Source: Thermoprotei archaeon (GTDB lineage Archaea > Thermoproteota > Thermoprotei > Thermoproteales > B15-G16). From it: DNA of 55,614 nucleotides. The notes under the pieces are model-generated. The model was not told where the DNA came from. It did no database searches and saw only the letters and a list, made by a program, of their open reading frames with translations. The stretch is taken from positions 1 to 55,614 of the forward strand of contig QMRC01000012.1 of NCBI GenBank assembly GCA_003649205.1. Direction: 5' to 3'. The translations under genes were made by a program, and so were the position numbers. Every line of letters begins with the position of its first letter. Position 1 is the first letter of the stretch. Below, in pieces: positions 38,085-55,401 of the stretch.

Positions 38085-38187
38085 CGTTCATCCCTGGTAG
38101 AGCCTCAGTAGAAGTTCACTACCGTAAAACTCACAAGGCTACCCTTAAGATTAACTTTATTCTCACACGTAGAGAGTTGCAGCTTAG

Positions 38188-39075: not shown

Positions 39076-39126
39076 AGTTAAGGTAGATAAAGGTCATCCT
39101 ACTTTACTAGAGTAGGTGATTTCACT

Positions 39127-40104: not shown

Positions 40105-40114
40105 GGGGTTTGCC

Positions 40115-40759
40115 ATGGAGGATCTAATCAATAAGCTTAAGGTAGCGATCATTGAGGGTGATGAGGAAGAAGCTCTGAAGGTAACTAAGGAATTGCTGGA
40201 GAGGGGTATAGATCCTAAATTAATTATTGAACGGGCATTGGAACCAGCTATGAAAATTGTAGGTGAGAAGTTTGAACGAGAAGAGTACTTCATACCTGAA
40301 GTCATGTTAGCAGCTGAGGTATTTAAGAAGGTTATGGAGTTTCTCAAACCTCATCTTGGTCAAGAGGTAGGTGAGAAGTCAAAGGGTAGAGTAGTGATAG
40401 GTACTGTTCGTGGTGATATACATGAGCTCGGTAAGAATCTTGTTGCTACAATGCTTTCAGTAGCTGGGTTTGAGGTTATAGATCTTGGTGTTGATGTGAG
40501 TCCAGAGAAATTCATTGAAGCAGTGGAGAAGTATAGACCTGATGTACTTGGTCTTAGCGCCTTAATGACTACGACAATGATTGAGCAGAAGGTAGTTATT
40601 GAGGAGTTGAAGAGGAGAGGATTAAGGGATAAAGTCAAGGTCATTGTTGGGGGAGCACCTGTTACAGAAGAATGGGCTAGAGAGATCGGTGCTGATGGTT
40701 ACGCTGCAAATGCGTACGAGGCTGTAAGATTAGTTAAGAAGTTGCTAGGTGTTGAGTAG
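40115..40759 (+). CDS. methyltransferase corrinoid protein (MttC/MtbC family)
   Basis: Cap domain, GDIHELGKN (DxHxxG), DLGVDV, GLSALMTTT and VGGAP. Confidence 0.96.
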   Translation: MEDLINKLKVAIIEGDEEEALKVTKELLERGIDPKLIIERALEPAMKIVGEKFEREEYFIPEVMLAAEVFKKVMEFLKPHLGQEVGEKSKGRVVIGTVRGDIHELGKNLVATMLSVAGFEVIDLGVDVSPEKFIEAVEKYRPDVLGLSALMTTTMIEQKVVIEELKRRGLRDKVKVIVGGAPVTEEWAREIGADGYAANAYEAVRLVKKLLGVE

Positions 40760-42202
40760 ATGCCAAGACCTACAATCTCGTTATTGAGTAAAAACGATAT
40801 TGAGCTAATACATGAGAAGGCGCTAGAGGTTCTCGAGGTAATTGGTGTCAGGATTGAGAGTAGAAGAGTTGTGAACCTACTTAAGAGCTACGGTCTTGAG
40901 GTTAGTGAGGGTAATGTAGTTAAGTTTCCAAGAGATCTAGTTGAGAGTAAAGTTAAGGATTGCCCACATGAATTCACACTCTATGATAGAGAAGGAAAGC
41001 CGAGATTATTGGTTGGAGGTGATAGAACTTACTTCAACCCAGGTTCAGCAGCTACGAAGATACTTGACTTGAGACAGAACACCATTAGGGATCCCACACT
41101 TTGGGATTTACGCGACATAGCTATCCTAGTTAATGAACTTGAGAACATTGATGCTCAGAGCACAGCTGTTGTACCTCATGAATTTCCACCAGAGACCCGA
41201 GATAGAGTTAGACTATATCCACTTCTGAAGTACTCGACTAAGCCTATAGTCACAGGAGCCTTTACGGTAGATGGTGTACACGACATGGTTAAGCTCTTAA
41301 GCATCTTCATCAGCGACCTCGATAAAAGACCAATAGCTATATTCGATGTTTGTCCATCACCACCCCTTAAGTGGAGTGAAGTCACTGTGGAGAATTTAGT
41401 TGATTGTGCTAAGTATGGACTACCTATAGAGATAATATCAATGCCATCTCTCGGCGCTACATCACCAGTGACAATTGCTGGTGCTCTAGTGCAGCACCAT
41501 GCTGAAGTACTTTCAGGTATAGTAATAGCTCAGTTAGTTAGAAAGGGTGTACCTGTTGTATATGGTGGATCACCTTCGACATTTGACATGAGGTATGGGA
41601 CACCGAACATAGTTGCTCCTGAAGCCCTTCTGGTGTCACTTGCATATGTTGAGATAGCAAAGTATCTGAACTTACTAACACACACGTACATGGCTTTAAG
41701 CGACACTATCTTACTCGACTATCAATCTGGTGTAGAGACAGGTATCAGCGCTCTTGTAGCTTGTTTAAGAGGAATAAACGTTGTCTCAGGTCCTGGTATG
41801 TTAGAGCACGAGAGTACTCAATGTCTTGAGAAGTTAGTTCTCGATAATGAGGTCTGTGGATTAGTTAGGAGGTTTAGTAGAGGATTCAACATCGGTATAG
41901 AGGAGTTAGCTATTGACTTACTAAGAGATGTAGGTCCTGGTGGTACATTTCTATCTAAGAAGCATACCGTTAAGCACTTTAAGAAGGAAATTTACCATCC
42001 TCACATACTATTAAGATATGACATGAGAGAATGGATGAGGAGAGGTAGTCCCTCACTCCTGGAGAGAGCTAAACAGGAAGTTGAGCAGTTGCTAAAGAGG
42101 GGCACTAGAGAGTTACCTCCATCGGACCTACTTCAGGAACTAAATAGAGCAATTAATGGAATACTTAGGAAATTCGGTATTACAGTAAGGGAACTCCCTT
42201 AA
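40760..42202 (+). CDS. non-pyrrolysine MttB-superfamily methyltransferase
   Basis: IHEKALEVLEVIG, SPPL, GATSPVTIAGAL, GVPVVYG, DYQSGVE, LVLDNE and VGPGGTFL; no in-frame amber codon. Confidence 0.93.
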   Translation: MPRPTISLLSKNDIELIHEKALEVLEVIGVRIESRRVVNLLKSYGLEVSEGNVVKFPRDLVESKVKDCPHEFTLYDREGKPRLLVGGDRTYFNPGSAATKILDLRQNTIRDPTLWDLRDIAILVNELENIDAQSTAVVPHEFPPETRDRVRLYPLLKYSTKPIVTGAFTVDGVHDMVKLLSIFISDLDKRPIAIFDVCPSPPLKWSEVTVENLVDCAKYGLPIEIISMPSLGATSPVTIAGALVQHHAEVLSGIVIAQLVRKGVPVVYGGSPSTFDMRYGTPNIVAPEALLVSLAYVEIAKYLNLLTHTYMALSDTILLDYQSGVETGISALVACLRGINVVSGPGMLEHESTQCLEKLVLDNEVCGLVRRFSRGFNIGIEELAIDLLRDVGPGGTFLSKKHTVKHFKKEIYHPHILLRYDMREWMRRGSPSLLERAKQEVEQLLKRGTRELPPSDLLQELNRAINGILRKFGITVRELP

Positions 42203-42218
42203 GGTATAGATTTCACCA

Positions 42219-43514
42219 CTATGGAGTTGGTACAATACCAGGCACTTTGGGAAAAGGTACTGCTTCCCACACATACCTAAGACCTAGTATGTACCTAGTA
42301 AATCTCTCCACGCCTAATCCAAAACCAGCACTTGGAGGTATACCAATCTTTGCTAACTCTAAAAACCATGAGTACCGTTCTAAGTCCTCACCCATTTGTC
42401 GCAACCTTTCAACGATCTTATCGTATCTGTACTCACGTTCTCCTCCATCCACAACTTCTCCAAACCCACAAGGTAGTATGAGGTTGAAATCTCTATTGTA
42501 GCCTGGTTTCTCTGGATCCTCTAGGTAGTAGAAGCCTCTACTAGTTTTCGGATACTTAATAATCCAGAAAGGTTCATCACCTAGGTACTCACTCAACTTT
42601 GTTTCTCCTTCCTGTGTTAACTCATGTCCTTTAGGAGTTTCTATACCTAACTTCCTCAGTATGTCAGTAGCTTCATCATATGTAAGTACCTTAAAGGGCT
42701 TCTTAGGTACCTTAAGTGAGGGATTGAACTTCATCACAACATCTCTACACGTTTCAAGAACTTTTTCCATCGTGTAAACTACTAAATCCTCACATAGCTT
42801 CATCACATCCCACATCGAGGCATAAGCCCACTCTACATCGACCTGCGTAAATTCACAGAGATGCCTACCAGTGTGCATGTTTTCTAATGGTTCCTCCCTA
42901 ACATTCCTAGCTACAAAGAATATCTTCTCTAGAGAGGCCACCGCAGCTTGCTTAAACATTATTACGCTAGACATAAGTTCGTACTCATACCCATAGAGCT
43001 TTGTTTTCAGTTTCCTTGCTCCTCTCAAACCTGGATCACTACACGGACTAATTATTGGTGGTAAGAGCTCTACAAAGCCACTCTTTATAAGGAAGTCCCT
43101 CACGTAGTATAGAACCCACTGCTGGATCTTAAGTACATTAGCGTACTTTGGAGACCTTATAATGAAGTAACTGTACCTTGCGAACTTCCTCACATCACTT
43201 GGATCTACCTCCTTAAGATCTACGGGTAGTTCAGGAGGAGCCTTAACTATGGTCCTTAACTCACATACTTTCAATACATCACCTTCCACAAAACCCTTGA
43301 CATACACCAAGCTCTCTCTCGTTAGGTTCCTTACTACCTCTACCTGAGGTACTATGAACGAAGCCACACCTGTTGAATCACGTAACTCAAGAATACACCT
43401 ATCTCCAACGAACTTCAAATCGTGAACCCAGGCAAGTAGCTCTACCTCACCACCATGTCTAACTACATCACGTACGTACATAGACTTACTGGGGTATAGG
43501 CGATCGAACCTCAT
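42219..43514 (-). CDS. AsnRS-like protein: archaeal asparagine synthetase A-type core with retained OB-fold
   Basis: LAWVHD..LRDSTG OB fold. Class IIb core with LLPPIISPCSDPG, SSVIMFKQ, RHLCEFTQVD, GGERE and GFGLGVER. Confidence 0.8.
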   Translation of the reverse strand: MRFDRLYPSKSMYVRDVVRHGGEVELLAWVHDLKFVGDRCILELRDSTGVASFIVPQVEVVRNLTRESLVYVKGFVEGDVLKVCELRTIVKAPPELPVDLKEVDPSDVRKFARYSYFIIRSPKYANVLKIQQWVLYYVRDFLIKSGFVELLPPIISPCSDPGLRGARKLKTKLYGYEYELMSSVIMFKQAAVASLEKIFFVARNVREEPLENMHTGRHLCEFTQVDVEWAYASMWDVMKLCEDLVVYTMEKVLETCRDVVMKFNPSLKVPKKPFKVLTYDEATDILRKLGIETPKGHELTQEGETKLSEYLGDEPFWIIKYPKTSRGFYYLEDPEKPGYNRDFNLILPCGFGEVVDGGEREYRYDKIVERLRQMGEDLERYSWFLELAKIGIPPSAGFGLGVERFTRYILGLRYVWEAVPFPKVPGIVPTP

Positions 43515-43719
43515 ATGTAGCTCACAGTAACCACAACAGACACTACAATATTAAATTTACTGGCAATTTAACACAGTTAGTAAGTATGCAATACACTAAT
43601 TATCCACAGTAAATTTAGCGAAGAAGACATTCTTCCAATCATCCTCAATGCATATCGTTAGATTGACAATATTCCTATAGACCCAATGAATAAATACCTC
43701 CTAGAAACTATATTGAAAC

Positions 43720-43774
43720 GGGATGAAGAGGACTTGCCCCCTTGAACGATGAAGATATTACCGCGACCTGACCC
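43720..43774 (+). ncRNA. box C/D guide sRNA targeting 16S helix 18 / 530 loop
   Basis: GGG-ATGAAGA-GGACTTGCCCCC-TTGA-acg-ATGAAGA-TATTACCGCGAC-CTGA-CCC. Guides are complementary to GGGGGCAAGTC and universal CGCGGTAATA. Confidence 0.95.
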
Positions 43775-43962
43775 CCTCAAGCTCACTCCACAACACTCCA
43801 CTACCTAGTATGATACGTAGCATCTCTATAGGTTAAGTAAATTGAAAGCGATGTGAGGAGTTAGAGGTGAAAGTATCTGCAGCGTGACTGTGGATTAGAG
43901 AGCATTTTCAGAAAAGAAAGTACATACACAGTACGTAGAGCATTTAACAGCACTTAGTGAGG

Positions 43963-45126
43963 TTAACTTAGAAGTAGCAGAGCGTATGAAATGAAGAACA
44001 AATAGGAAAGTAGAGTAGAAGGACCAATGTACTTATACACACGTACAACATCGGCATTATAGTACTTCACACTATAGACTAGACATAGATGTACTGGAGA
44101 TGGTACATAGCCAAAGAAACTGGAGTTAAATATTAATACAGCATCCTTGAATGAGCTAGCAGTTAAGACAGATGCTGAAACAGTAATAGAAAAAGTTTGA
44201 GACCCCGTTACCAAGCTAAGTACATAGGGTACAAGCAATAGCAATACATCACGGGGAAGGTGCTTGCTAAGTCCACTAATCACCGTATAAGCACTAGTCA
44301 TCTTAACTGAGAAACTAAGTAGTATGACAGCGAAGCTGGCTAGTGTTGTAGACCAAACCCTTTTACTACTCAAAACCTTACGTAGTATAGTGGAGCTTGG
44401 TCTGTATGTGAATACTATGAACACGATACTAGCTATGACACCAATACCAATAGAAAAACCACTCACTAGGGGTCTAGTAGCTAGAGCTATTACCAGAGGA
44501 ATTAAGAGGGTAAGGAGTGACGTATATTTCGGTCTAACTCTAACCAAATGAACTACCTCGAGTTTTCTAACCCCAATTACATAGCCAACAGCAACAGTAA
44601 GGAGCATCAAGGGGGTATTGAATAAAGCTATAGAAAAGGAATCGGCACCACTTAGTGACGAAATCAAGATCATGGAGTTGGTAATCGGATAGGCAAGAAA
44701 TATCGTGTGCCTAAACCACACGTTAATGTAGGCCTTCATCACCGAATTACAGAGTGAAAGAGCATCAACCAATGGAGCGGACAGTAGAGCACCACCAGCA
44801 ACTGGTAGAAGACCTAGTACAGCAGGTAATAACATAATAGCCACCTTAGGCCTCATAATCGAGACTACTGTCTGCGCAACTTCGTTGTCAATTCCCAAGT
44901 TATGAAACAATTCAGCTAAAATACATATACTAGCTGTAGCAGAGAAAACAATCCAGAAAGTCTCGCTCAGTAACGTGGTCAAGATTACTTTAGGAAGTAG
45001 AAGAGGATTTGTCAGCAGGACTAACGTTATAGCTCCTGCAAGCAGGCATAGACTAATATCGAGTTTCATGTACATTAGCAGTAGCATTAACGCTATAGAT
45101 ATCAGCAATGAAGCAGCTGAGTACAT
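43963..45126 (-). CDS. DUF401-family membrane protein
   Basis: PAVLGLLPVAGGALLSAP, NVWFRH and SPVHLCL. Confidence 0.85.
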   Translation of the reverse strand: MYSAASLLISIALMLLLMYMKLDISLCLLAGAITLVLLTNPLLLPKVILTTLLSETFWIVFSATASICILAELFHNLGIDNEVAQTVVSIMRPKVAIMLLPAVLGLLPVAGGALLSAPLVDALSLCNSVMKAYINVWFRHTIFLAYPITNSMILISSLSGADSFSIALFNTPLMLLTVAVGYVIGVRKLEVVHLVRVRPKYTSLLTLLIPLVIALATRPLVSGFSIGIGVIASIVFIVFTYRPSSTILRKVLSSKRVWSTTLASFAVILLSFSVKMTSAYTVISGLSKHLPRDVLLLLVPYVLSLVTGSQTFSITVSASVLTASSFKDAVLIFNSSFFGYVPSPVHLCLVYSVKYYNADVVRVYKYIGPSTLLSYLFFISYALLLLS

Positions 45127-45427
45127 GGGAGAGTGTTACACTCAATGAGAATATATGGTTTTTCGCCTCTGAACCTACTTCAAAAATCAAGACATCACGA
45201 TAGAGGAGGTGAACTTCAGCATTGAAGGTAGAGAGTACCTTGAGCTAATCTAGGTGAGAAGCCTTTTGGGCATATAGGTATGTAGATGGAAATTGAAGAT
45301 TTATCGTCTAGATTACGAACTACAGTGATTGAAGCAGATGAAAATCTAGGTAACCATAGTCACACATAGAGGAGTAAACCTATAATCTCTAATATCCAAA
45401 AACGAGAGGTAAGTAGCAACTAAGACG

Positions 45428-46291
45428 GTGGTAGTGATGGAGTTTGGAGTAGCTACAATGGTGTACTACCCAGGTTCAACACCTAGAAGAGCCATACTCG
45501 ACTCACAGAGCTTTGGTTTCAGGTACCTTGAGATAAGTTACGAGCACTTCATCAAGTACATAGAGAACAACGACCTAATGAGGGTAAAGGAGCTACAGAA
45601 ATCCATAGTGGAAGTACTTGAGACAACACAGCTAAAGGTACTTCAAGTACATGCACCATACGGTAAGGTGAACTACTACATGGTTGCAGATGATGTGGGA
45701 TTAAGGAAGTACGCTACTACACTGATGGAGATGTGGATTGAGTTCTGTAGAGAGGTGGACTGTAGAACCCTAGTAACCCACACAGGATGGGCACCACCAC
45801 GAGTCACAGTACCATACCACAAACATATAGAGATAATGTTGAGGAAGAACATAGAGTTCTATAGGGAACTGAGTAAGGTAGCTAAGGATAAAGGAGTTGA
45901 AATAGCAATTGAAAATAGATTGGAAAGAGTCTTCGGTATAACACCAAAGGACATAGCAGCAATAGTGAGTGAAGTAGGTAGTGAAGTACTTGGACTCTGC
46001 CTAGACGTAGGTCATGCACACATAAACAAGCTACCAATACCAGAGATACTGCAGAGGTACGGTAGCATCCTAAAGGCAACACACATACATGATAACAACG
46101 GTGAAGTAGATCAGCACCTACCACCATACATGGGATCAATAGACTGGAAAACCATCATCAAAGCATTCAAGAACATAAACTACAGTAGACCACTAATATT
46201 CGAGGTAGCAGGGGATCGAGTAGAGGAAATATGTAGGAATAGACTGTACCTACTATCAAAGATCAGGGACATACTAGCAGAAGAGACATGA
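45428..46291 (+). CDS. sugar phosphate isomerase/epimerase (xylose-isomerase-like TIM barrel)
   Basis: HAPY, IAIEN, LDVGH, HIHDN, HLPP and IFE. Confidence 0.9.
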   Translation: MVVMEFGVATMVYYPGSTPRRAILDSQSFGFRYLEISYEHFIKYIENNDLMRVKELQKSIVEVLETTQLKVLQVHAPYGKVNYYMVADDVGLRKYATTLMEMWIEFCREVDCRTLVTHTGWAPPRVTVPYHKHIEIMLRKNIEFYRELSKVAKDKGVEIAIENRLERVFGITPKDIAAIVSEVGSEVLGLCLDVGHAHINKLPIPEILQRYGSILKATHIHDNNGEVDQHLPPYMGSIDWKTIIKAFKNINYSRPLIFEVAGDRVEEICRNRLYLLSKIRDILAEET

Positions 46292-47433
46292 GTAGATACA
46301 CACTAACGATAAAACCCAGTACACACATCAGCACACTCTGCTACTCAGTACTAAGGATAGAACCATACGCAACCTGCGAATACAGCTGCGCGTACTGTTA
46401 CGGGAAGTGGTATAGAGTAGAGACAGAGAACAAACCACTCAAATCACTAATCAACGAATTCAGGAACCTAGTCAAGGTACTGACCAGGAGAAACCTAAAG
46501 ACAATACCCTTCAGACTATCAACCCTCGTAGATCCACTACAACCAATTGAGCAAGAGCACAGACTCAGTAGGTACATAATGAAGCTATGTCTGAGATACG
46601 ATGTACCACTCATCATATGCACAAAGTCAACACTCATACTAGAGAGACCCTGGATAGAATTAGTTACGAAGCTAAGCTCAAGACAGCTAGCAATCGTACA
46701 GATCACCTTAACAACACTAAGAGACGAAGTGGCTAAGGTACTAGAGCCAAGAGCACCAAAACCAGAGGACAGATTGAAGGTCGTAGAGAAGCTAAGTAGT
46801 GAAGGAGTACCTGTAGTAGCTAGGTACCAACCACTGATACCAGGTGTAGTAGAGGATGAGTACATCGAGATGATACAGCAGCTCAAGTACGCAGGAGCAA
46901 AACAAGTAGTCGTTGAGTCACTGAGGCTAACACTAGGAGAAATCAACAACCTAAGCAAGGTAATTCCAGAGCTAAGGAAAGTGGAGTGGGAACCATACAC
47001 ACCACAGCAACCACAGGTAACTAGACCGCACATAGGCTGGAGAAGGTACGTAGTGAGCAAGATAGCAGAGACGTGTAGGAAGTACGGACTAGAATTCAGC
47101 ACCTGTAAGGAAGGATTTCTCGAACTATGCACAGCAGAGAACTGCTGTGGAATGCACTACCTAGATCCAGAGAAGTACGTACTAAGACCAACACTACACG
47201 AAGTATGGAGAAAGTGGTTAATCAGAGGAAAAGTACCAACACCACAGGAACTAACTCAAGAACACGAACAAGATCCAAAGTACATCTGCGGAAATAAACT
47301 CATGAACTACCCAAGACAACTCAGAAGAGCACTGAAACAACACGAGAAAACACTAGTGAAGGTACTAGAGAAGGAAAACCTACTCAAGCACGTACTCGGA
47401 ATAGAGGAAACACCAAAGAAAGCCAAGACATAG
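46288..47433 (+). CDS. radical SAM protein (spore-photoproduct-lyase-like)
   Basis: EPYATCEYSCAYCY, DPLQPIE, CTKS and LEPRAP...R. Confidence 0.9.
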   Translation: MSRYTLTIKPSTHISTLCYSVLRIEPYATCEYSCAYCYGKWYRVETENKPLKSLINEFRNLVKVLTRRNLKTIPFRLSTLVDPLQPIEQEHRLSRYIMKLCLRYDVPLIICTKSTLILERPWIELVTKLSSRQLAIVQITLTTLRDEVAKVLEPRAPKPEDRLKVVEKLSSEGVPVVARYQPLIPGVVEDEYIEMIQQLKYAGAKQVVVESLRLTLGEINNLSKVIPELRKVEWEPYTPQQPQVTRPHIGWRRYVVSKIAETCRKYGLEFSTCKEGFLELCTAENCCGMHYLDPEKYVLRPTLHEVWRKWLIRGKVPTPQELTQEHEQDPKYICGNKLMNYPRQLRRALKQHEKTLVKVLEKENLLKHVLGIEETPKKAKT

Positions 47434-47442
47434 TAGACATAG

Positions 47443-47982
47443 GTGAAGAACTTGCTGAGAGGACTCTTCATAGGTAGATTCCAACCATTCCACAACGGAC
47501 ATCTACATGCAGTAAAACACATACTAAGCGAAGTAGATGAGGTAGTCATCGCAGTAGCATCAGCACAGTACAACTACACCATAGACAACCCATTCACAGC
47601 AGGAGAGAGAATAGAGATGATAAAGCTAGCACTAGGACCACTCTACAACAGAACCTACGTAATACCAGTCGACAACATACCAAACAACTACACATGGCCA
47701 AGACACGTACTAAACTACGTACCTAGAGTACACGTAGTCTACACAAACAACGAATTCGTAGCAAAACTCTTCAAAGACTACGGACTAGAGACAAGACCAG
47801 TACCACACCTAGAAGGAGTAAGCGGAACACTCATAAGGAAACTCATCGTAGAGGACAAACCCTGGAAACACCTAGTACCAGAACCAGTAGCAAAGTACAT
47901 CGAGGAAATAGGAGGAGTAGAGAGAATAAAGCTAGTACACAGAATGAGAGTAGTAGCAGAGGGCGAGAGACATGGAAGGTAG
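47443..47982 (+). CDS. nadM: nicotinamide-nucleotide adenylyltransferase
   Basis: GRFQPFHNGH, NPFTAGER and SGTLIR. Confidence 0.95.
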   Translation: MKNLLRGLFIGRFQPFHNGHLHAVKHILSEVDEVVIAVASAQYNYTIDNPFTAGERIEMIKLALGPLYNRTYVIPVDNIPNNYTWPRHVLNYVPRVHVVYTNNEFVAKLFKDYGLETRPVPHLEGVSGTLIRKLIVEDKPWKHLVPEPVAKYIEEIGGVERIKLVHRMRVVAEGERHGR

Positions 47983-48757
47983 GAAGTACACAGCAGCAGT
48001 AGTGACAATAGGAACCGAACTACTGAGAGGACTCATAGAGAACACAAACGCAACATGGCTCTGCAAACAACTAACAGACCTAGGAATAGAGGTAAAGAGA
48101 GTAGTCACAGTACCAGACGACATGAACGAAATAGTCGAGACAATAAGGGAACTACTCAGGAAAGTAGATATCATAGTAACAACAGGAGGACTAGGATTCA
48201 CGAGAGACGACATAACAGTAGAGGCAATAGCAGAAGCAATACAGCAACCACTACACCACAGACGAGACATAGAGCAAATGGTACTAACTAGGTGTAGAGA
48301 ACTAAACTACGAGATAACACAGGAAGCACTCGTGAAAGTATCGAGAGCACCACCAACAGCACAACCACTACCAAACAACACAGGAATCGTACCAGGACTA
48401 CACATAGAACACCAAGGAAAACACATCTACGTACTACCAGGAGTACCAAGAGAAATGAAGCAAATATTCCAAGACCACGTAAAACCACACCTACAACAAC
48501 TCACAGAAACAAAACACACCATAGAGCTGATAGTACACACGAGACACAGAACCGAGATCGAGGTAGAGAACAAGCTCAAGAACATAGACATGAGCAGGTA
48601 CCACGTAACCTACATCAAGATCCACCCAAGACAACCAGTACAGATATCCATAACACTACAGCACACAGACAAACAAGAACTAATGAAGAAAGTACAGGAA
48701 CTACAGCAAGAACTAGGTAAGGTACTCAACATAGAGAAGATAGAGATCAAGACCTAG
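47972..48757 (+). CDS. cinA: CinA-like protein (molybdopterin-binding-type domain, no PncC domain)
   Basis: IGTELL.G...NTN, VPDD, TTGGLG.T.DDIT and LPGVPREM. Confidence 0.88.
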   Translation: MEGRKYTAAVVTIGTELLRGLIENTNATWLCKQLTDLGIEVKRVVTVPDDMNEIVETIRELLRKVDIIVTTGGLGFTRDDITVEAIAEAIQQPLHHRRDIEQMVLTRCRELNYEITQEALVKVSRAPPTAQPLPNNTGIVPGLHIEHQGKHIYVLPGVPREMKQIFQDHVKPHLQQLTETKHTIELIVHTRHRTEIEVENKLKNIDMSRYHVTYIKIHPRQPVQISITLQHTDKQELMKKVQELQQELGKVLNIEKIEIKT

Positions 48758-48777
48758 AGGAGGAAAGGGTAAGGAAG

Positions 48778-49563
48778 ATGACGACAACCATAGAGCTACC
48801 GAAGAAACTAGTAGAGAAACTAAAGGAGAGAGGACTAGACCCAACAACACACATCGTAGACACCCTAGTACGAGAACTAGAGCTAGATCCAGTAGAGGAA
48901 GCAGAGACAAGAATAGAACTCGCAGAGAAATACCTAGAAGAAGCGAGGAAATACATCGAGAGAGGCGACGCAGTACAAGCAAGCGAGAAAATGTACAAAG
49001 TAGTCGAGGAATGCATAAAGGCACTAGCACACATGCACAAACTACCTGAGTACGAAAAAGCAGTGAAAGAAGGAAGATGGTGGACACAACTACTAGGAAA
49101 AGCAGCTAGAAAACTAGCTAAACTACTCAACGAACCAAGAATTGAATCAACATGGTCAATCGCCTACGACATACACGTATGGGGATTCCACGAAGCAAAG
49201 TACACAGTAGAAGACATAGCACAAGACATACAGCACATAGAGTGGCTACTCAACCACACAAAGAAACAAATCAAAACAACAACCAAACACCAATCAAACA
49301 ACAACTCAATTAAGAAACAAAGAGAGCAGAAACAACAAAGAGCAGAGAGGGAAAACCCACATGACACTAGTGAGAGCAAGAGTAGAGATACACGGAACAA
49401 AGAAGCAAGTAACAGCAACAGCACTAGTAGGTACAGGAGCAACACTAACACTCATAGACAGAGAAGTAGCAGACGAGATAGGAGTCAAGTACACAGGAAG
49501 AAAAATCAAACTAGTAGTAGCAGACGGACACGAACTACCCAGCGAACTAGCTATAGTGGATAA
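48778..49563 (+). CDS. PaREP1-family protein (domain ends near residue 165; low-complexity tail)
   Basis: GDAVQASEKMYK, GRWWT and HVWGFHE. Confidence 0.85.
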   Translation: MTTTIELPKKLVEKLKERGLDPTTHIVDTLVRELELDPVEEAETRIELAEKYLEEARKYIERGDAVQASEKMYKVVEECIKALAHMHKLPEYEKAVKEGRWWTQLLGKAARKLAKLLNEPRIESTWSIAYDIHVWGFHEAKYTVEDIAQDIQHIEWLLNHTKKQIKTTTKHQSNNNSIKKQREQKQQRAERENPHDTSESKSRDTRNKEASNSNSTSRYRSNTNTHRQRSSRRDRSQVHRKKNQTSSSRRTRTTQRTSYSG

Positions 49564-49759
49564 GGTGGTAATCGAAGGAGAAGAACTACCACAAGCACAC
49601 ATAGCAGTAACAGAATTCCCACAGAAACTAAGACAAAGACTAGAGACACTACAGCTATGTACATGGTGCATCATAGGAGCAACAACACTAGAGACACTGG
49701 AACTAACACCAAACCCAAAAACAGGAAAACTAGAGAAAACACAAGCACTACTACTCTAA
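49361..49759 (+). CDS. clan AA aspartic-protease-like protein, catalytic DTG present as GTG
   Basis: ALVGTGATLTLID..VADEIG, ADG and IIGATTLE. Confidence 0.8.
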   Translation: MTLVRARVEIHGTKKQVTATALVGTGATLTLIDREVADEIGVKYTGRKIKLVVADGHELPSELAIVDKVVIEGEELPQAHIAVTEFPQKLRQRLETLQLCTWCIIGATTLETLELTPNPKTGKLEKTQALLL

Positions 49760-49811
49760 ACAAGACGAAAAACACATAACACCCCCACACAACCACGTGA
49801 AACGAGAACAA

Positions 49812-49912
49812 CCCCCGGTAGCTCAGCCTGGCAGAGCGGCCGGCTGTAGTGGGGTAGGAAAGAACAACCCGCAGCAACCGGCAGGCCGGGGGTTCAAATC
49901 CCCCCCGGGGGA
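49812..49912 (+). tRNA. tRNA-Tyr(GTA) with a 27-nt intron at 37/38 (49850-49876)
   Basis: CCCCCGG/CCGGGGG acceptor with C1-G72 and A73, GCCGG-CTGTAG|ACCGGC anticodon arm. BHB motif: CTGT/GCAG helix with AGT and CAA bulges. CCA not encoded. Confidence 0.97.
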
Positions 49913-49988
49913 TCATTTACTCATTTCTTCTTCACCAATTTTGGTGGGTTTTTCACATGATTCTTTGGTTCTGAGGTTTTGATTGGGG

Positions 49989-50032
49989 ATCTTATATACT
50001 ACTTAGCTTAGTTCTATCTCGGTGAATTCTCT
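49989..50032 (+). promoter_or_regulatory. TATA box and RBS, duplicated at 50599-50642
   Basis: ATCTTATATACT...GGTGAAT(T/C)CTCT-GTGCCTAT occurs twice, exactly 610 bp apart. Confidence 0.8.
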
Positions 50033-50464
50033 GTGCCTATCATCATAAGGTTACCGATCAAGGTTAAGGAAATTAAACCTATTACTGTTAGCTTTGTTGC
50101 TGAGGTTCCTTACTTAGTCCCTGGTGAGTTGAGGGTTCCGGAGGATGTTTTGAAGAGGTTTAGGGATTTTGGTGTTCCTGATGGGTATCCTGTTCAGGTT
50201 TGTGTAGCGCCGTTGGAGTATGTTATTGAGAAAGAGGGTGGTGTGAATCTAGAGAGACCTGAGGTTTTTGGGTTGCCAGTAGCTGCTGTTGTGTATTTTC
50301 GGTATGGTAGGGGTATTTGGTTGAGTGAGTACTTTTGGGATTTCTTTAGTGCTAACTTCAGGAAGTATGTAGGTCACCTTAAGAAGGGTGATCCTGTAAA
50401 AGTGAGAGTAGTGATACATACAGCACTATTCATAGTTGATGAGGATGTGAGGAAGACAGCTTGA
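50033..50464 (+). CDS. hypothetical protein, tandem paralog 1 (AbrB-like motifs)
   Basis: Collinear with and highly similar to 50643..51080; own promoter and RBS. Confidence 0.85.
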   Translation: MPIIIRLPIKVKEIKPITVSFVAEVPYLVPGELRVPEDVLKRFRDFGVPDGYPVQVCVAPLEYVIEKEGGVNLERPEVFGLPVAAVVYFRYGRGIWLSEYFWDFFSANFRKYVGHLKKGDPVKVRVVIHTALFIVDEDVRKTA

Positions 50465-50642
50465 AGGGAAAGTAAGAGATCTTGAGTTGATGCTTCATTT
50501 AGCTATGTTATCCTGATCTCAGGTGTACTCTGTATCCTTGTTAGTTGGTACTGTAGATTACTCTGTGTAGTCTACACATGCTCTTCATTGTATCAGGAAT
50601 CTTATATACTGGCTTGCCTCTCCTCTTGTTGGTGAATCCTCT

Positions 50643-51080
50643 GTGCCTATTGTCATTAAGCTTCCAGTTGAGGTTAAGGAGATTAGGCCTATTACGGTTT
50701 GCTTCATAGCTGAAGTACCTTATATGATGCCTACTGAGGTTAAGATACCGAATGAAGTACTTAAAAAGCTGAGGGAGAGTGGTCTGCCCGACGGGTATCC
50801 TGTTAGTATTTGTGTTGCACCGCTCAAGTATGTTGAGGAGAAGGAGGGGTGTGTGAGGCTTGAGGATCCGGAGGTCTTTGGTTTGCCTGTAGCTGCTATC
50901 GTGTACTTTCGGTATGACAGAGGTATTCGTTTAAGCGAACTTTTCTGGGACCTCTTTGCTGCTGGTTATAGGAAATACCTCGAGGGTTTGAAGAAGGGGG
51001 ATCCTGTAAAGGTGCGTATCGTCATTCATGCTGCACTATTCGTTATTGAGAGAGAAAAAAGTAATGTGGAAAAGAGTTAG
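50643..51080 (+). CDS. hypothetical protein, tandem paralog 2 (AbrB-like motifs)
   Basis: Shares PDGYPV, VAPL.YV.EKEG, PEVFGLPVAA.VYFRY and LKKGDPVKVR with paralog 1. Confidence 0.85.
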   Translation: MPIVIKLPVEVKEIRPITVCFIAEVPYMMPTEVKIPNEVLKKLRESGLPDGYPVSICVAPLKYVEEKEGCVRLEDPEVFGLPVAAIVYFRYDRGIRLSELFWDLFAAGYRKYLEGLKKGDPVKVRIVIHAALFVIEREKSNVEKS

Positions 51081-51109
51081 AGCACCTTCTGAGGCTTAGC
51101 AACGCCTTA

Positions 51110-53239
51110 TCAGAGGTGTTTGATACCATAATCAAATACCGCAACATAGACCATTATGCCGTTAACTGTCCTTTCAGCACTAGTCAACACTACCGATATG
51201 TACATGATGTAATCAGCCCCTATGCCTATTGCATGCTCTTTAGCTTCCCTAATACACATCTTCCTCAACGATTCAAGGACGCTAGGAGCCTCTTCATAGC
51301 TTGCAAACCGAATCTTTGTCTCAACAACCGCTACTACCTTTCCCTTCTCAGACAATATTATAAAGTCAGGCTTGCCCGGCTGCCCGAGCATTTCAATCGT
51401 GAAGTCCTTGAGCTTAAGTGCTTCTGATATGTACCTACGCAGTACTCGGTGATGTAGTAGCTTCTGTGCTATGTACTCTCCAATGTAGCCTTTACTTCGT
51501 GAATCTAATGTAAGGTATGTAAACAGCAAGTTAGGTTTCACAAAGATCCCTATGTATCCTTCAGACTCCATGACTATCAGGTTCTTCTCCACTAGTTGTT
51601 TTGCTTTTGCTCTTGGTATGGTTTCGTATATTTGCTTTAGTTCTGGTAGCTTGAAGTACCTCGTGTATGGTCTTTGTGGTTCGTGGAATCTTATGTAGTA
51701 CCCTATGACTTGTTCTCTCTCGTTTCTTACTGGTATGATGTCTAGTATTTTCCAGGCTTTTACTACTCCTTCTGCTTTTGTTACTATGTTCCAGTGTAGG
51801 TTGTTTGGTTGGAGGACTAGGTGTAGTTCTAGGTCTCCTCTCTTGAATACGATGTATGGTGATCTGTAGCCTGCGTACTGTGGTCTTAGTTCTCCTTGGA
51901 TGGTGGTGGTTCCTGGTAGTTTGAGTACTGGTTTCTCGTCTATGACATCTATCTCGAGTACTTGTCTTAGCTTTGGTTCTATGGTGTTTATCCACCTATC
52001 TAGTACTTGTTTGAGGGTTGTCTGTTCGAGGACTATACCTATCCACTGTCCTGTGTACTTCTTGAGGTGTAGCTTGATCTTGTCTACCTTGGTTAGGTAT
52101 CTTAGCTGTATTTCCTGTACTCCCCATTCGTTGATTAGTTTTAGGGTATAGAGCCCTGGTTTCTGTACCATGTACTTGCTGAAGGTCTTTGGTATTGCTA
52201 CTGTTCCTGTCTTTGGTACCTTGGCTACGTATCCTCTTCCTGTGCTGAGTGTTCTTACCCAGGTCTCGATTAGTGTTGTTACTTCGTGTCTTGGTGTTGT
52301 CTTGAGTTGTGTCCTTATGTACTGTATGATCTCTGGGTCATCTCGGTAGAGTTTCTTTACTAGTTCTCTCAGTTGTCTTAGGTAGGTGTTTGCTATGTGG
52401 TGTGTTGTTGGGTAGAGTTTTCCTAGTGCTCTGATTGCTACCTCTATGAGTGCTGTTGCTAGGAGTTGTGCTGCTGCTCTCTCCTTTACTTCCTTTGGTA
52501 CGTCTGGTCGTACTATGGCTGCTGCTAGTGTTCCTAAGGTTCCTGGGTATGTTTCGGTTAGTGCTGTTAGTGGGTCGTATCCTCTAAGTACGTCGTCTAT
52601 GGCTTTGGGTATTCCGAGGTTCACTATATTGCCTATGTGGTAGAGTAGTGCTATGGTGTGGATGAGTACTGGTGTGTCTAGTCCTGTTGCTTCTCTTATC
52701 CTCTCTAAGCTATCTCGGTAGTCCTGTACGAGGTATGCTGGTGATTCTCTGTATACCTCTATGACTTGTCTAAGTACGTTACCTATGTCTACGGTGCTTA
52801 CCTGTACTCTGTAGCTCTTAGGTACTTTGCTTCCGTTGATCTCTATCGGTATGGTTAGGGTTATGGTGTTGTTGCTTATCTCTACCTTGGTTTGGTTTAG
52901 TAGGTATGTTACGTTTCCTACGGTGATGTAGTTTCCTATCTCTGTGATTGCTTTTGTGAGGTTTCCTGTTTCTAGGTACTTATCGAGTACGTTGCTGCAC
53001 CTAGTTACTCTTAGTCCTGGGTACTTGATTGCTAGGTATGTTGTTGAGAGTGCTAGTCCGATGATGAGTATTCCTAGGAATTTCCTTAGTGCTCTGTCAC
53101 TTACTACGTACCTACCTAGGAGGAACCACATGAGTATGGTTGCTAGTGGTAGTGGTGACTTCACGAGTAATCCGGCTATTGCTGATGCTATTGTTACTAG
53201 GATTAGTAGTATCCTGAGGATTTTGGTTACTGGGGTCAC
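51110..53239 (-). CDS. membrane-anchored protein with C-terminal PD-(D/E)XK nuclease domain
   Basis: Three N-terminal hydrophobic helices; C-terminal KGYIGE..A...KPDFII...VVAVVETK. Confidence 0.75.
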   Translation of the reverse strand: MTPVTKILRILLILVTIASAIAGLLVKSPLPLATILMWFLLGRYVVSDRALRKFLGILIIGLALSTTYLAIKYPGLRVTRCSNVLDKYLETGNLTKAITEIGNYITVGNVTYLLNQTKVEISNNTITLTIPIEINGSKVPKSYRVQVSTVDIGNVLRQVIEVYRESPAYLVQDYRDSLERIREATGLDTPVLIHTIALLYHIGNIVNLGIPKAIDDVLRGYDPLTALTETYPGTLGTLAAAIVRPDVPKEVKERAAAQLLATALIEVAIRALGKLYPTTHHIANTYLRQLRELVKKLYRDDPEIIQYIRTQLKTTPRHEVTTLIETWVRTLSTGRGYVAKVPKTGTVAIPKTFSKYMVQKPGLYTLKLINEWGVQEIQLRYLTKVDKIKLHLKKYTGQWIGIVLEQTTLKQVLDRWINTIEPKLRQVLEIDVIDEKPVLKLPGTTTIQGELRPQYAGYRSPYIVFKRGDLELHLVLQPNNLHWNIVTKAEGVVKAWKILDIIPVRNEREQVIGYYIRFHEPQRPYTRYFKLPELKQIYETIPRAKAKQLVEKNLIVMESEGYIGIFVKPNLLFTYLTLDSRSKGYIGEYIAQKLLHHRVLRRYISEALKLKDFTIEMLGQPGKPDFIILSEKGKVVAVVETKIRFASYEEAPSVLESLRKMCIREAKEHAIGIGADYIMYISVVLTSAERTVNGIMVYVAVFDYGIKHL

Positions 53240-53428
53240 GTGGGGGCCCTTTCTCTAGTTGATCAGAATCGATTATAGTCTCGTAGAGTGTTGGTTATGT
53301 GATTTCATAGAGCTACGTTACTGTACTGTACTACTGATTGATCTAGTGTGTTCCTGTGTTCGGTTGAGTCTGTGTTGGTGTAGGTATGTTATTTAGCTCC
53401 CTCTGTACTGTGGTTTATTGGGTGGGTT

Positions 53429-53956
53429 TTGTTGGGTTGTATTGTTTGGGTTCCTAGGAGGATTGTTAAGGAGATTGAGAGGAGGGGTTTGTGTGTTGAG
53501 GATGTTTTAGTTGAAGTTCTTGCTGAGAAGTTTAATCTTGATTCTCAGAGTGTTGCTGAGGTTCGTCTTGAGCTTGCTGAGAAGTACTTGGAGGAAGCTA
53601 GGAGCTATGTTGAGAAGGGTGATGCTGTTCAAGCAAGTGAGAAGTTGTATAAGGTTGTTGAGGAGTGTGTGAAGGCTCTTGCTGAACTCCTTAACCTTCC
53701 TGAGGTTGAGAAGGCTAAGAGGTTAGGGAGGTGGTTTACTTGGCTTCTTGGTAGTGCTTCTTCGAGGGCTTCTAAGGTGCTTGGTGAGCCGAGGATTGAG
53801 TTTGTCTGGGGTATTGCGTATGACCTACATGTCTGGGGTTTTCATGAGGTGAAGTACGGTATTGATGTTGTTGAGATGAGATTTCCTCATATTGAGTGGC
53901 TTCTACGGTACACTAAGGAGAAGGTGAAGGAGCTTTCGAAGGGTTCTCAGAGGTAG
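53429..53956 (+). CDS. PaREP1-family protein
   Basis: GDAVQASEKLYK, GRWFT and LHVWGFHE. Confidence 0.9.
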   Translation: MLGCIVWVPRRIVKEIERRGLCVEDVLVEVLAEKFNLDSQSVAEVRLELAEKYLEEARSYVEKGDAVQASEKLYKVVEECVKALAELLNLPEVEKAKRLGRWFTWLLGSASSRASKVLGEPRIEFVWGIAYDLHVWGFHEVKYGIDVVEMRFPHIEWLLRYTKEKVKELSKGSQR

Positions 53957-54017
53957 CTTAGTGTGTTTAGCTACCTTAATTTACCTGTTAACTCATTTAC
54001 TGATTGAGGTGGGAAGA

Positions 54018-54518
54018 GTGGAGTTCACTGTTATTGAGGTTCCTGATGTTGTTTATGAGGTCCTTGCTCGAAAGGCTAAGTACTTGGGTAGGACGGTAGT
54101 AGATGTGATTGTGGACTCTGTAATCTCTAATCTCGATCCTGAATCCAGAGTTGAGGTGTACCTCAAACTCCATGATAAGTACCTTAGCGATGCTGAGGAT
54201 CTGTATAGGAGAGGTGACCTTACTCAAGCTAGTGAGAAGTACTGGGGTGCTGTCTACGCTATCTTGAGTGCTATTGCCGAGTCGGGAGGGTTGCCACATT
54301 TTAGACATGGTCATTTTGAGGAATTGATTGAGTTACTTAGTGAGGAGCTTAATGACCGTGAGTTACCTAAGCTCTTCGCTAGTGCTGAGAGACTTCACGC
54401 AAATTTCTACCATGGTTTTCTCAGGAAGTTTGGATTTGAGATTCATCGTGAAGACGTGCTTAAGCTAGTTGAGAAGCTTCGTAATTACCTAACTGAGCTT
54501 AGGAGTACTCGGTGCTAG
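54018..54518 (+). CDS. PaREP1-family protein with RHH-like N-terminus
   Basis: VIEVPDVVYEVL, GDLTQASEKYWGA and AERLHANFYH; GAGGTG RBS precedes GTG 54018. Confidence 0.9.
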   Translation: MEFTVIEVPDVVYEVLARKAKYLGRTVVDVIVDSVISNLDPESRVEVYLKLHDKYLSDAEDLYRRGDLTQASEKYWGAVYAILSAIAESGGLPHFRHGHFEELIELLSEELNDRELPKLFASAERLHANFYHGFLRKFGFEIHREDVLKLVEKLRNYLTELRSTRC

Positions 54519-54567
54519 GTCTACTAGGTACCTCATTCTCAACTCTAGATGTGTGGGGTAACTTAAA

Positions 54568-55401
54568 ATGAAGGACAGATCATCTATGAATGTCATTGAT
54601 AGGCTCAAGAAGGTTTTCATCAAGTATCCTCAGGTTCTCCTAGCGTATCTCTACGGTAGCTATGCTAGGGGTTGTCCTAGTCCATTAAGTGATGTCGATA
54701 TAGCTATCTTGACTAGTGATCGTGGTGTAGTGCTTGATCTCGTAGCTGATGTAGCTAGAGAACTTGGTATACCTGAGAGTCAGGTATCGATTACTGACTT
54801 GGAGCTTATGGATCCTCTAATTAGGTTGAAGATACTTCGTGAAGGTGTTGAACTTGTTAATAGGGGTGTTGATACTCGATCACTTCTCCCTCGTGATCAG
54901 TCCTATGTCGAGGTCTATGAACTTGAGGAGAGGTCGAGTTCTCTAAGTTGGTTGAGAGGTGATCCTATAGATATTGTCTTGATTAGGGATGTAGTTGCTA
55001 GAATTCATGAGGATGTTCGTGATCTAGAGGAGTTACTTAGCTTTGGTTTTGAGAGGGTTATTGGTGATAAGCATTTGAGGAAGTCCTTTGAGAGAACGAT
55101 GCAGACTCTCATAGAGTCTATGGTGGATCTACTGAGACATATCGTAGCTGGGTTGAATCTGGGTGTAGCGATGTACTACAGGGACTACGTTGATTTTGCT
55201 GTTAAGGGGGGTGTCATCTCTAGTGATGTAGCTGAGCAACTACGGAGATTCATACCGATTAGACATGCACTAGTACACAGGTACCGTAGTCTGGATTACG
55301 AGAAGTTATGGGGTGAAGCTCCTAAACTAGTACAGTTAGCTAATCAACTAGTTAGTGAAGTTAGGGAATTCCTGAAGAGGAGATTGGGGCTCAAGGTATA
55401 G
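54568..55401 (+). CDS. fused MNT (MntA) nucleotidyltransferase and HEPN (HepT/DUF86) RNase
   Basis: YLYGSYARG...SDVDIA; ERTMQ..IES..D; RHALVHRY (Rx4H). Confidence 0.9.
   Translation: MKDRSSMNVIDRLKKVFIKYPQVLLAYLYGSYARGCPSPLSDVDIAILTSDRGVVLDLVADVARELGIPESQVSITDLELMDPLIRLKILREGVELVNRGVDTRSLLPRDQSYVEVYELEERSSSLSWLRGDPIDIVLIRDVVARIHEDVRDLEELLSFGFERVIGDKHLRKSFERTMQTLIESMVDLLRHIVAGLNLGVAMYYRDYVDFAVKGGVISSDVAEQLRRFIPIRHALVHRYRSLDYEKLWGEAPKLVQLANQLVSEVREFLKRRLGLKV

Follow-up and report, generated by a model that had tools for sequence, protein, structure and literature searches.

An apparently composite open reading frame with a nuclease-like end module at the centre of a mirror-image zone of strand skew in a Thermoprotei archaeon

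We analyzed a locus on the chromosome of a Thermoprotei archaeon where an open reading frame (ORF) of 709 codons ends in a nuclease-like module, beside two small paralogous genes and a transfer RNA (tRNA) gene. All coordinates are positions in the window, that is, the whole stretch of DNA that was analyzed (55,614 nt; contig QMRC01000012.1 of assembly GCA_003649205.1). An earlier note on this DNA had described the locus as polymorphic-toxin-like, with a nuclease tip recently acquired together with two candidate immunity genes next to the tRNA gene. The centre of the locus starts with an intron-bearing tRNA gene on the plus strand (49812-49912; Rfam RF00005, 55.1 bits, E 7.4e-10), which is followed on the same strand by a T-rich spacer of 120 nt (49913-50032), recognized by its sequence and composition (A21 C21 G21 T57) and carrying the promoter-like motif of the first small gene. 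Two small genes called as ORFs come next, both on the plus strand: small gene A (50033-50464), which encodes 143 amino acids, and its paralog, small gene B (50643-51080), which encodes 145. In the list of ORFs the 709-codon ORF spans 51110-53239 on the minus strand and is convergent with both small genes. Its codons 557-709, together with the stop codon (51110-51571, minus strand), form the nuclease-like module, hereafter the tip, which is delimited by its relatives, its motif and its structural model. Codons 1-556 (51572-53239, minus strand), hereafter the older part, begin with hydrophobic helices and have a T-poor sense strand. On either side lies DNA of strongly skewed composition. The left arm (45428-49811) holds six plus-strand genes and has an A/C-rich plus strand, with the bias rising towards the tRNA gene, and the right arm (51572-54000), which comprises the body of the 709-codon ORF and a PaREP1 gene on the plus strand (53429-53956), has a G/T-rich plus strand.

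The tRNA gene has a 30-nt insert in its anticodon loop according to the Rfam alignment, and this intron contains only 2 T in 30 nt, being T-poor like the left arm. By our own reading it is a tRNA-Tyr gene with the anticodon loop CU-GUA; ARAGORN did not call it. An Rfam scan of 49000-54000 at E <= 1 returned this tRNA and one sub-threshold match to U3 only. With its 3' end the gene marks both the left edge of a block of normal composition and the point at which the skew changes sign.

We located the compositional break within the 709-codon ORF by a two-segment likelihood scan of T at codon positions 1 and 3, taking a 2-unit support interval. The best change point fell after codon 558 (about 51565; support 553-565), with a log-likelihood ratio of 30.3 as against a maximum of 8.3 in 300 codon shuffles. 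The frequency of T at codon positions 1, 2 and 3 is 0.09, 0.34 and 0.03 in codons 1-555 and 0.19, 0.36 and 0.25 in codons 556-709. As a reference we used 44 genes from the rest of the window, in which A+C at third positions of the sense strand has a mean of 0.430 (standard deviation 0.082) and T at the third position (T3) a mean of 0.335 and a minimum of 0.228. Measured against these genes, the composition of the older part has a z of +5.1 and that of the flanks +4.4 to +5.1, while z is +0.5 for the tip and -2.3 and -1.9 for the small genes. The block (49913 to about 51571) is hence of normal composition, and the anomaly lies in the flanks. The earlier note had seen the codon skew stop abruptly near 51570, about where the last domain of some 150 residues begins, and had described the segment from the tRNA 3' end to that point as much less skewed than either flank; both observations stand, with the emphasis reversed, since it is the flanks that depart from the norm.

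The joint itself retains the imprint of the older part. All six T's in the 54 nt before the ATG at 51571 occupy codon position 2 of the old frame, as far as our reading of the sequence goes, which indicates that the old coding pattern reaches the joint and that the module brought no promoter of its own. Likewise, we recognized no promoter or ribosome-binding motif at the usual distance before this ATG; there is only a TATA-like string some 55-62 nt upstream.

In a full-library phmmer search with the 709-residue protein against 1.84 billion cluster representatives, four matches were retrieved, none longer than 158 residues. Two of them are free-standing versions of the tip. Residues 2-154 of P0005 (156 residues) match residues 556-708 of the query, with 60% identity to the tip, and P0008 (158 residues) matches query residues 560-706, with 39% identity; both align along their whole lengths. 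Met557 (ATG at 51571-51569) lies at most 2 alignment positions from Met1 of both relatives, and the C-termini of the three proteins are at most 3 residues apart in the alignment. With the change point at Met557 and the relatives starting there as well, the break falls on the start codon of a gene that is complete elsewhere. A profile search of proteins of 278-2000 residues, in which 8000 candidates were scored, found the tip on no long protein apart from the 709-residue query, although a blank in this length class is weak evidence. Scanning genome contigs with the tip alignment gave the peptide pattern at 138 stretches, none of which was confirmed.

The sequence of the tip bears the marks of a nuclease. 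In tip numbering, E32, D69 (within KPDF) and E84-x-K86 are invariant in all three members of the family. An AlphaFold2 (AF2) model, built on a shallow alignment, reached a predicted local distance difference test score (pLDDT) of 88.0 and a predicted template modelling score (pTM) of 0.82. In this model E32 lies on helix 24-39, D69 at the beginning of strand 67-75 (strand 2) and E84-x-K86 on strand 78-89 (strand 3); a long helix (95-117) and two further strands follow, so that the core runs helix-strand-strand-strand-helix-strand. A helix, three strands, a helix and a strand, with the motif at these positions, is the core order of the restriction-endonuclease fold. As modelled, the tip has the arrangement of the PD-(D/E)xK motif, in which the first core helix carries the E, the D is located where strand 2 begins, and E-x-K lies in strand 3.

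Comparisons with known structures and families gave weaker signals. A Foldseek search of the Protein Data Bank (PDB) with the tip model had no match at E <= 0.001 (best E 0.018). Among the best fold matches, at E 0.018-0.15, are many nucleases of the PD-(D/E)xK fold, namely Hjc, CinB, HincII, R2, BsaXI and a cap-snatching endonuclease, the Hjc structures being 2eo0_B (E 0.018, probability 0.33), 2wcw_A, 4tkd_D and 1hh1. Profile matches were weak too (NERD at E 0.029, with 15.3 bits for a cut-off of 22.1; YraN at E 0.11; REase_II at E 0.019), no Hjc family appeared among the Pfam matches up to E 10 for any of the three members, and sequence searches of the PDB gave a best E of 0.6 for the tip and 0.48 for its profile. 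With Hjc, NERD and YraN (UPF0102) the tip shares its size of about 150 residues, the motif order E...D...E-x-K and the same core topology, but it differs from them in having an extra N-terminal strand and helices and in lacking a match at any curated cut-off. We file it as a new small family of three known members that resembles a minimal PD-(D/E)xK nuclease and stands outside Hjc, NERD and YraN, and we infer that the module is a metal-dependent nuclease.

The older part, residues 1-556 of the protein, has a different set of relatives. Its hydrophobic segments lie within residues 1-33, 21-43 and 53-74 (19-residue Kyte-Doolittle windows above 1.6 start at 1-14, 21-24 and 53-55), and they are kept in both of the remaining phmmer matches, P0006 (158 residues; 48% identical over residues 4-156) and P0007 (84 residues; 68% identical over residues 3-77). 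These two are the only relatives of residues 1-556 that we found, residues 157-555 having no match among the 1.84 billion representatives. A word-seeded search with the whole 709-residue protein returned only the protein itself, one of 8000 candidates scored; the absence of full-length relatives may stem from sparse sampling of the lineage. At 90% identity the protein falls in a cluster with 4 member sequences. No Pfam family matched the whole protein at E <= 0.1 and no NCBIfam, PADLOC or PHROG family did so, and the best score of residues 80-556 in the ESM Atlas was 0.77, which is below the stated noise level. Five N-x-S/T sequons lie within residues 93-135, where shuffled sequences have a mean of 2.0 (five or more in 39 of 1000 shuffles). 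In every 40-codon window of codons 1-556 the frequency of T at position 2 is 0.25-0.55, with the same periodicity throughout, which argues that these codons were a real, selected coding frame while the skew grew. Codons 1-556 are probably an old resident gene for a membrane-anchored, surface-exposed protein.

Two further features lie within the older part. An ORF of 144 codons at 51561-51995, in another frame, is open on the T-poor strand. On the plus strand at 51685-51697 there is a 13-nt string that differs by one mismatch from the promoter-like motif of the small genes, within a 31-nt match at 71% identity; since no third copy of a small gene follows, this may be a chance match.

Proteins A and B are identical at 93 of 138 aligned residues (67%; E 7e-73). 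The duplication covers a unit of 610 nt, which includes a conserved TATA-like string as well as a GGTGA located 8 nt before each GTG start; the string reads TTATATA at 49992-49998 in front of gene A, and its counterpart in the gene B copy lies 610 nt further on. Over the 138 codons the synonymous divergence (dS) is 1.44 and the ratio of nonsynonymous to synonymous divergence (dN/dS) is 0.17, so that both genes have been kept by selection after an old duplication. Gene B and the tip module converge, with their stop codons 29 nt apart. What the small proteins do is hard to read from databases: Pfam, NCBIfam, PADLOC and PHROGs gave no match of note (PADLOC and PHROGs nothing below E 0.019), and a profile of the small proteins had a best E of 1.3 against PDB sequences. 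The AF2 model of protein B is moderately confident (pLDDT 78.9, pTM 0.73), and its fold had no match at E <= 0.001 (best E 0.15 in the PDB and 0.078 in BFVD), nor any usable match in the ESM Atlas. We considered that protein B might consist of two AbrB-like halves; BLASTP of the halves gave no alignment. A scan for sigma-70 promoters and terminators found sites no more common than in shuffled sequence, with a model that is not applicable to archaea.

In a word-seeded search with a small protein, three of 50 candidates were relatives, namely a copy with 99% identity, present on 3 contigs from three sources, the paralog encoded in the window itself and a chimera-like fragment of 84 residues. In this fragment (P0004, on a 1270-nt contig elsewhere) the first 44 residues are 89% identical to protein B (window 50643-50774) and the rest is unrelated to the window, so that it represents either another genomic junction of a small gene or a chimeric assembly. 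Relatives at 60% and 39% identity exist for the tip, but for the small proteins there are near-identical copies only; as far as the word-seeded search goes, proteins A and B thus do not accompany the tip.

The skew of the flanks is extreme. Towards the tRNA gene, the T3 of the six plus-strand genes at 45428-49759 is 0.15, 0.07, 0.03, 0.02, 0.03 and 0.03, as compared with about 0.34 in the reference genes. At four-fold sites of the sense strand, the 44 reference genes have A 0.33, C 0.14, G 0.13 and T 0.41 (n=5897), the core of the left arm (4 genes) has A 0.80, C 0.12, G 0.05 and T 0.03 (n=331), and the older part has A 0.71, C 0.23, G 0.04 and T 0.03 (n=271). The PaREP1 gene at 53429-53956 on the plus strand, with A 0.04, C 0.04, G 0.14 and T 0.78 (n=73), is skewed in the opposite direction in its sense strand, indicating that the skew follows the DNA strand and not the sense strand. 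The bias extends to non-coding DNA, with 2 T in the 52 nt of 49760-49811 and a composition of A30 C27 G54 T78 in 53240-53428.

To follow the skew along the DNA we calculated the keto excess, defined as third-position G+T on the plus strand minus the expectation from gene orientation, in 500-nt bins. It ranges from -0.14 to -0.42 in the left arm (45500-49999), takes the values +0.19, +0.18 and +0.04 in the block (50000-51499), rises to +0.37, +0.37, +0.45, +0.41 and +0.28 in the right arm (51500-53999), and decays to the right of 54000 (+0.13, +0.15 and +0.09, up to 55499). Bins at 38000-45499 lie between -0.16 and +0.10. When 500-nt windows were scored for an absolute AT skew of at least 0.4, 38 of the 552 in this stretch qualified, all of them within 46901-53100, as compared with 0 of 648 in five loci from related genomes. 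It is the minus strand that is T-rich to the left of the centre and the plus strand to the right of it, so that the zone is a mirror image, with origin-like polarity, extending for approximately 4-5 kb on each side.

The encoded proteins seem to have been maintained throughout. T at codon position 2 stays at 0.30-0.34 in the skewed genes, which implies that selection at the protein level held while the bias grew and therefore points to a long-acting mutational pressure, against a single burst or an artefact. The genes of the left arm keep intact Pfam domains, namely a xylose-isomerase-like TIM barrel, radical SAM, cytidylyltransferase-like (NMNAT-type; 1e-16), MoCF/CinA-type (1.6e-39), PaREP1 and retropepsin-like domains.

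PaREP1 genes are found on both arms, and the two paralogs (48778-49299 and 53429-53956) have 90 of 174 residues in common. At 66 of the 90 codons for identical residues the third base differs, nearly always in one direction; going from the right to the left copy there are 25 T>A, 21 G>A and 15 T>C changes. The left copy (48778-49563, plus strand) has 261 codons, as compared with 175 in its paralog at 53429-53956, and the homology ends near codon 174. Its low-complexity tail, a run-on of 87 codons, overlaps the retropepsin-like gene at 49361-49759 and looks like a read-on after stop-codon loss on the T-poor strand.

We examined several processes that could generate such a skew. Selection at the codon or mRNA level does not account for it, given that non-coding DNA is skewed too and that the sense strand of the PaREP1 gene at 53429 is skewed the opposite way, and neither does import from an organism of other codon usage, as the skew forms a gradient over six genes. 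Damage to 3' tails after 5'-3' resection of a central break would, by our reasoning, make the plus strand T-rich on the left, the opposite of what is observed. The resident genes point towards the centre, so that a skew produced by their transcription would have the opposite sign as well. Single-stranded DNA can gain T through cytosine deamination and through purine loss, after which A is inserted opposite the gap. If T-enrichment marks the strand that spends time single-stranded, the polarity would be that of machinery that starts at the centre and travels outward. Such machinery could be replication forks or strand-displacement synthesis at an origin-like site, or else strong divergent transcription accompanied by R-loops. 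A precedent exists in vertebrate mitochondrial DNA, where, according to the available text of Xia 2012 (PMC3269012), the strand left single during strand-displacement replication turns G/T-rich by deamination of C and A, in a gradient set by single-stranded time. The likeness extends to the A/C-rich complement and to the strong effect on third positions, as described in that text; the zone described here differs in being confined to some 4-5 kb to either side of a single chromosomal site, in mirror image, in the strength of the bias (the favoured base reaches 0.71-0.80 at four-fold sites), and in that no replication function was identified at its centre.

In the literature searched we found only general work on replication skew and no description of a local pattern of this kind, which is weak evidence of its absence from print; a paper on archaeal skew (PMC12999951) does not describe such a local pattern in its available text. 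No orc1/cdc6 gene, no Rep gene and no repeated intergenic motif were seen in the window. The 1-kb bin that contains the window's other tRNA gene has an AT skew of 0.14 and a GC skew of 0.07, so that no comparable skew is present there.

The window as a whole is chromosomal DNA, carrying genes for EF-2, AspRS, deoxyhypusine synthase and similar proteins. The closest public record, locus L001, is a contig from an uncultured Thermoproteales metagenome-assembled genome (MAG) with a 98% identical AspRS. Positions 1-4968 of L001 correspond to 37900-42870 of the window, five proteins being 90-98% identical, and the contig ends inside AspRS, a few kb before the skewed zone. An AspRS-anchored scan of genome contigs yielded five loci, none of which shows synteny beyond AspRS; in these loci 14 of 19 window proteins had no match, including the products of all genes from 43963 to the right end. 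Beyond the 709-codon ORF on its right side, the plus strand at 53429-55401 carries two PaREP1 genes and a fused nucleotidyltransferase (Polbeta/MNT) and HepT/HEPN gene. This neighbourhood is of the variable, defence- or toxin-antitoxin-like kind that is often found near tRNA genes.

The block resembles the tRNA-linked integrated elements and variable islands of archaea in that its orphan genes start exactly at the tRNA 3' end and in having PaREP1 and MNT-HepT neighbours. It differs from them in several respects. No integrase was present among the Pfam results for the genes of the window. The 22-nt tRNA 3' end occurs once in the window, even when up to 3 mismatches are allowed, and a repeat scan likewise gave no second copy, so that the direct repeat expected of a tRNA-targeting integrative element was absent. 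Finally, neither the tip nor small protein B had a tblastn match at E <= 0.01 among 50,697 phage and 72,556 plasmid records.

Taken together, the analysis established two histories within the 709-codon ORF, free-standing relatives of its end, a nuclease motif and a predicted core fold for that end. The ORF is, on balance, probably a composite of two DNA pieces with different histories. Codons 1-556 would be the old resident gene for a membrane-anchored protein, sitting inside a zone of extreme, locally produced strand skew, and codons 557-709 would be a complete copy of a small gene that is free-standing elsewhere, joined within a few codons of the ATG of that gene. The module and the two diverged tandem small paralogs make up a block of ordinary composition, 1.66 kb long, that reaches from the tRNA 3' end to codon 557. 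Most likely this block replaced earlier DNA after most of the skew had accumulated, cutting off the end of the old gene, and the reading frame would now continue from the old gene into the nuclease gene, an in-frame joint having a chance of 1 in 3. Stop codons need T, which is scarce on the T-poor strand, and run-on frames are accordingly to be expected there; the PaREP1 gene at 48778-49563 is a second run-on ORF in the skewed zone. To judge by composition, the block probably arrived later than the skew, and we prefer a later insertion at a fragile site over a block that is part of the cause of the skew. The small proteins may be linked to the nuclease module, adjacency being the sole basis for this.

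Several points weigh against this composite history. The joint sits right at the ATG and the module has no promoter of its own, which fits a true expressed fusion or a module swap better than passive run-on. The small genes, with a dS of 1.44, must either have arrived already diverged or belong to a block that is not young. Codon usage in the block is native-like, so that no foreign donor is indicated, and the window has neither an integrase nor a repeat of the tRNA 3' end. Composition is the only evidence on the order of events. As for the identity of the module, the fold matches of the tip to known nucleases are weak, the best at E 0.018 and none at 0.001 or below.

The fusion may be formal only, with the nuclease translated alone from Met557 and the upstream 556 codons being a truncated relic that stays open through the scarcity of stops on the T-poor strand. 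The relatives of the tip, which are free-standing and have the same start, agree with this, as do the spurious long ORFs on the T-poor strand (the 144-residue ORF at 51561-51995 and the 87-codon run-on of PaREP1 48778-49563) and the prior of 1 in 3 for a joint in frame. The lack of a recognizable promoter or ribosome-binding motif at the usual distance before the ATG at 51571 argues the other way, and so does the T content at position 2, which at 0.25-0.55 in all windows of codons 1-556 indicates that the upstream part was under selection at the protein level during the build-up of the skew; we regard a purely formal fusion as possible, though rather unlikely. A different reversal of the story concerns the block, which may be no younger than its flanks and may instead be the source of the skew or lie at that source. 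An outward process starting from both of its edges would leave the displaced strand single-stranded, through DNA synthesis that begins at a cryptic origin or at nicks, or through strong divergent transcription with R-loops, and the arms would become skewed with the centre spared. The sign of the skew fits outward-moving synthesis, the skew weakens along both arms away from the centre, the small paralogs diverged long ago (dS 1.44), the block encodes a nuclease-fold protein, and the pattern matches the strand asymmetry of vertebrate mitochondrial DNA as given in the available text of PMC3269012. Yet the window shows no orc1/cdc6, Rep, integrase or repeated intergenic motif, its other tRNA gene has no comparable skew, and a process that starts from the tRNA end should sweep the block rightwards, where the tip is unshifted (z +0.5). 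A block that is itself the source thus seems unlikely to us. More speculative still, and with a low chance of being right, is the idea of a fixed chromosomal site of repeated outward DNA synthesis or very strong transcription, at which the displaced strand would be driven to T by cytosine deamination and purine loss at hyperthermophile temperature, the nuclease-fold protein at the polarity switch would nick or cut to start the process, and the 709-residue ORF would have arisen incidentally, as stop codons were lost and DNA was rearranged in that zone. An assembly artefact, or a chimera joining DNA of different organisms or damaged templates, is highly improbable. In its favour, the window apparently derives from a metagenome-assembled genome, to judge by a MAG contig as its closest record, and a 1270-nt contig elsewhere joins the first 44 residues of protein B to unrelated sequence. 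Set against this, the skew rises gradually over some 4 kb and not stepwise, the skewed genes keep T at codon position 2 and have intact Pfam domains, the 90% cluster of the 709-residue protein has 4 members, and protein B is found at 99% identity on 3 contigs from three sources.

There is, finally, the reading of the earlier note, in which the locus encodes a surface protein akin to polymorphic toxins that received its C-terminal nuclease tip by recombination with a free-standing toxin cassette, the two small genes being the accompanying immunity genes. Much of what that note saw in the sequence was borne out. The N-terminal transmembrane helices and the C-terminal nuclease motif are matched by the Kyte-Doolittle segments and by an E...PD...ExK invariant in 3 of 3 members; the tip is, by alignment and AF2 model, a separable module with a restriction-endonuclease-type motif and predicted core topology; the small genes are indeed paralogs, at 67% identity; and their orientation, convergent to the tip instead of downstream of it on the same strand, is atypical, as the note itself had remarked. 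The toxin reading draws further on the surface exposure suggested by the N-terminal helices and the sequon cluster, on the conservation of the small genes (dN/dS 0.17), and on a joint that lies exactly at the module boundary, in frame and with no promoter retained, as a tip exchange would leave it. According to the available text of Zhang et al. 2012 (PMC3482391), the diversity of C-terminal toxins arises by recombination with standalone toxin cassettes. Standalone forms of this tip, which is modular and has a nuclease motif, do exist in P0005 (156 residues) and P0008 (158 residues), which may be silent cassettes or ordinary genes. The locus is thus like the systems of that text in having a long protein with a separable end module of restriction-endonuclease fold, also free-standing, with small orphan genes adjoining.

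It departs from those systems, however, in lacking N-terminal homologs with varied tips, in lacking trafficking, repeat or pre-toxin domains, and in its convergent small genes. The earlier note had suggested looking separately at the body and the tip for homologs with different C-termini; none was found, residues 1-556 having no full-length relative, so that alternative tips were not seen, and the tip was on no other long protein, its relatives being free-standing only. No secretion, repeat, pre-toxin or processing domain was detected in Pfam, NCBIfam, PADLOC or PHROG, and the look-alikes in the ESM Atlas, at 0.77, were below noise. The candidate immunity genes converge with the tip where same-strand downstream genes would be expected, and the small proteins, with near-identical copies only, do not accompany P0005 or P0008 as far as the word-seeded search shows. 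Nor is there the co-directional two-gene operon of a type II toxin-antitoxin pair, as both small genes face the nuclease module in convergent orientation and a promoter-like motif precedes each of them. Polymorphic toxin systems are, according to the available text of PMC3482391, generally absent from most archaea and tend to be lacking in hyperthermophiles, and the host here is a Thermoprotei archaeon of hyperthermophile type, a group in which they are reported to be rare. There is thus no positive evidence for the polymorphic-toxin label or for an immunity role of the small genes, and we consider this reading quite unlikely. As to a recently acquired cassette of tip and immunity genes next to the tRNA gene, a block of separate and probably later history is supported by its composition, and the immunity role is the part for which positive evidence is lacking.

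More generally, these results advise caution, as a long ORF that ends in a nuclease domain on a T-depleted strand is no evidence of a multi-domain toxin. The main interest of the locus lies in the new PD-(D/E)xK family and, above all, in the mirror-image hyper-skewed zone centred on the block. With three members among 1.84 billion representatives, the family of the tip is very small and is worth a biochemical look. The skew, confined to about 10 kb of coding and non-coding DNA, is so strong that even housekeeping enzymes have changed in amino-acid composition under it. Were the outward-synthesis site real, it would amount to a mitochondrion-like mutational gradient inside an archaeal chromosome, with proteins forced to drift in composition. 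If confirmed by long reads and sister genomes, the skew would be a natural record of which strand was exposed, how far and in which direction, at one archaeal site, and this record would bear on how replication or recombination-dependent synthesis starts in Thermoprotei.

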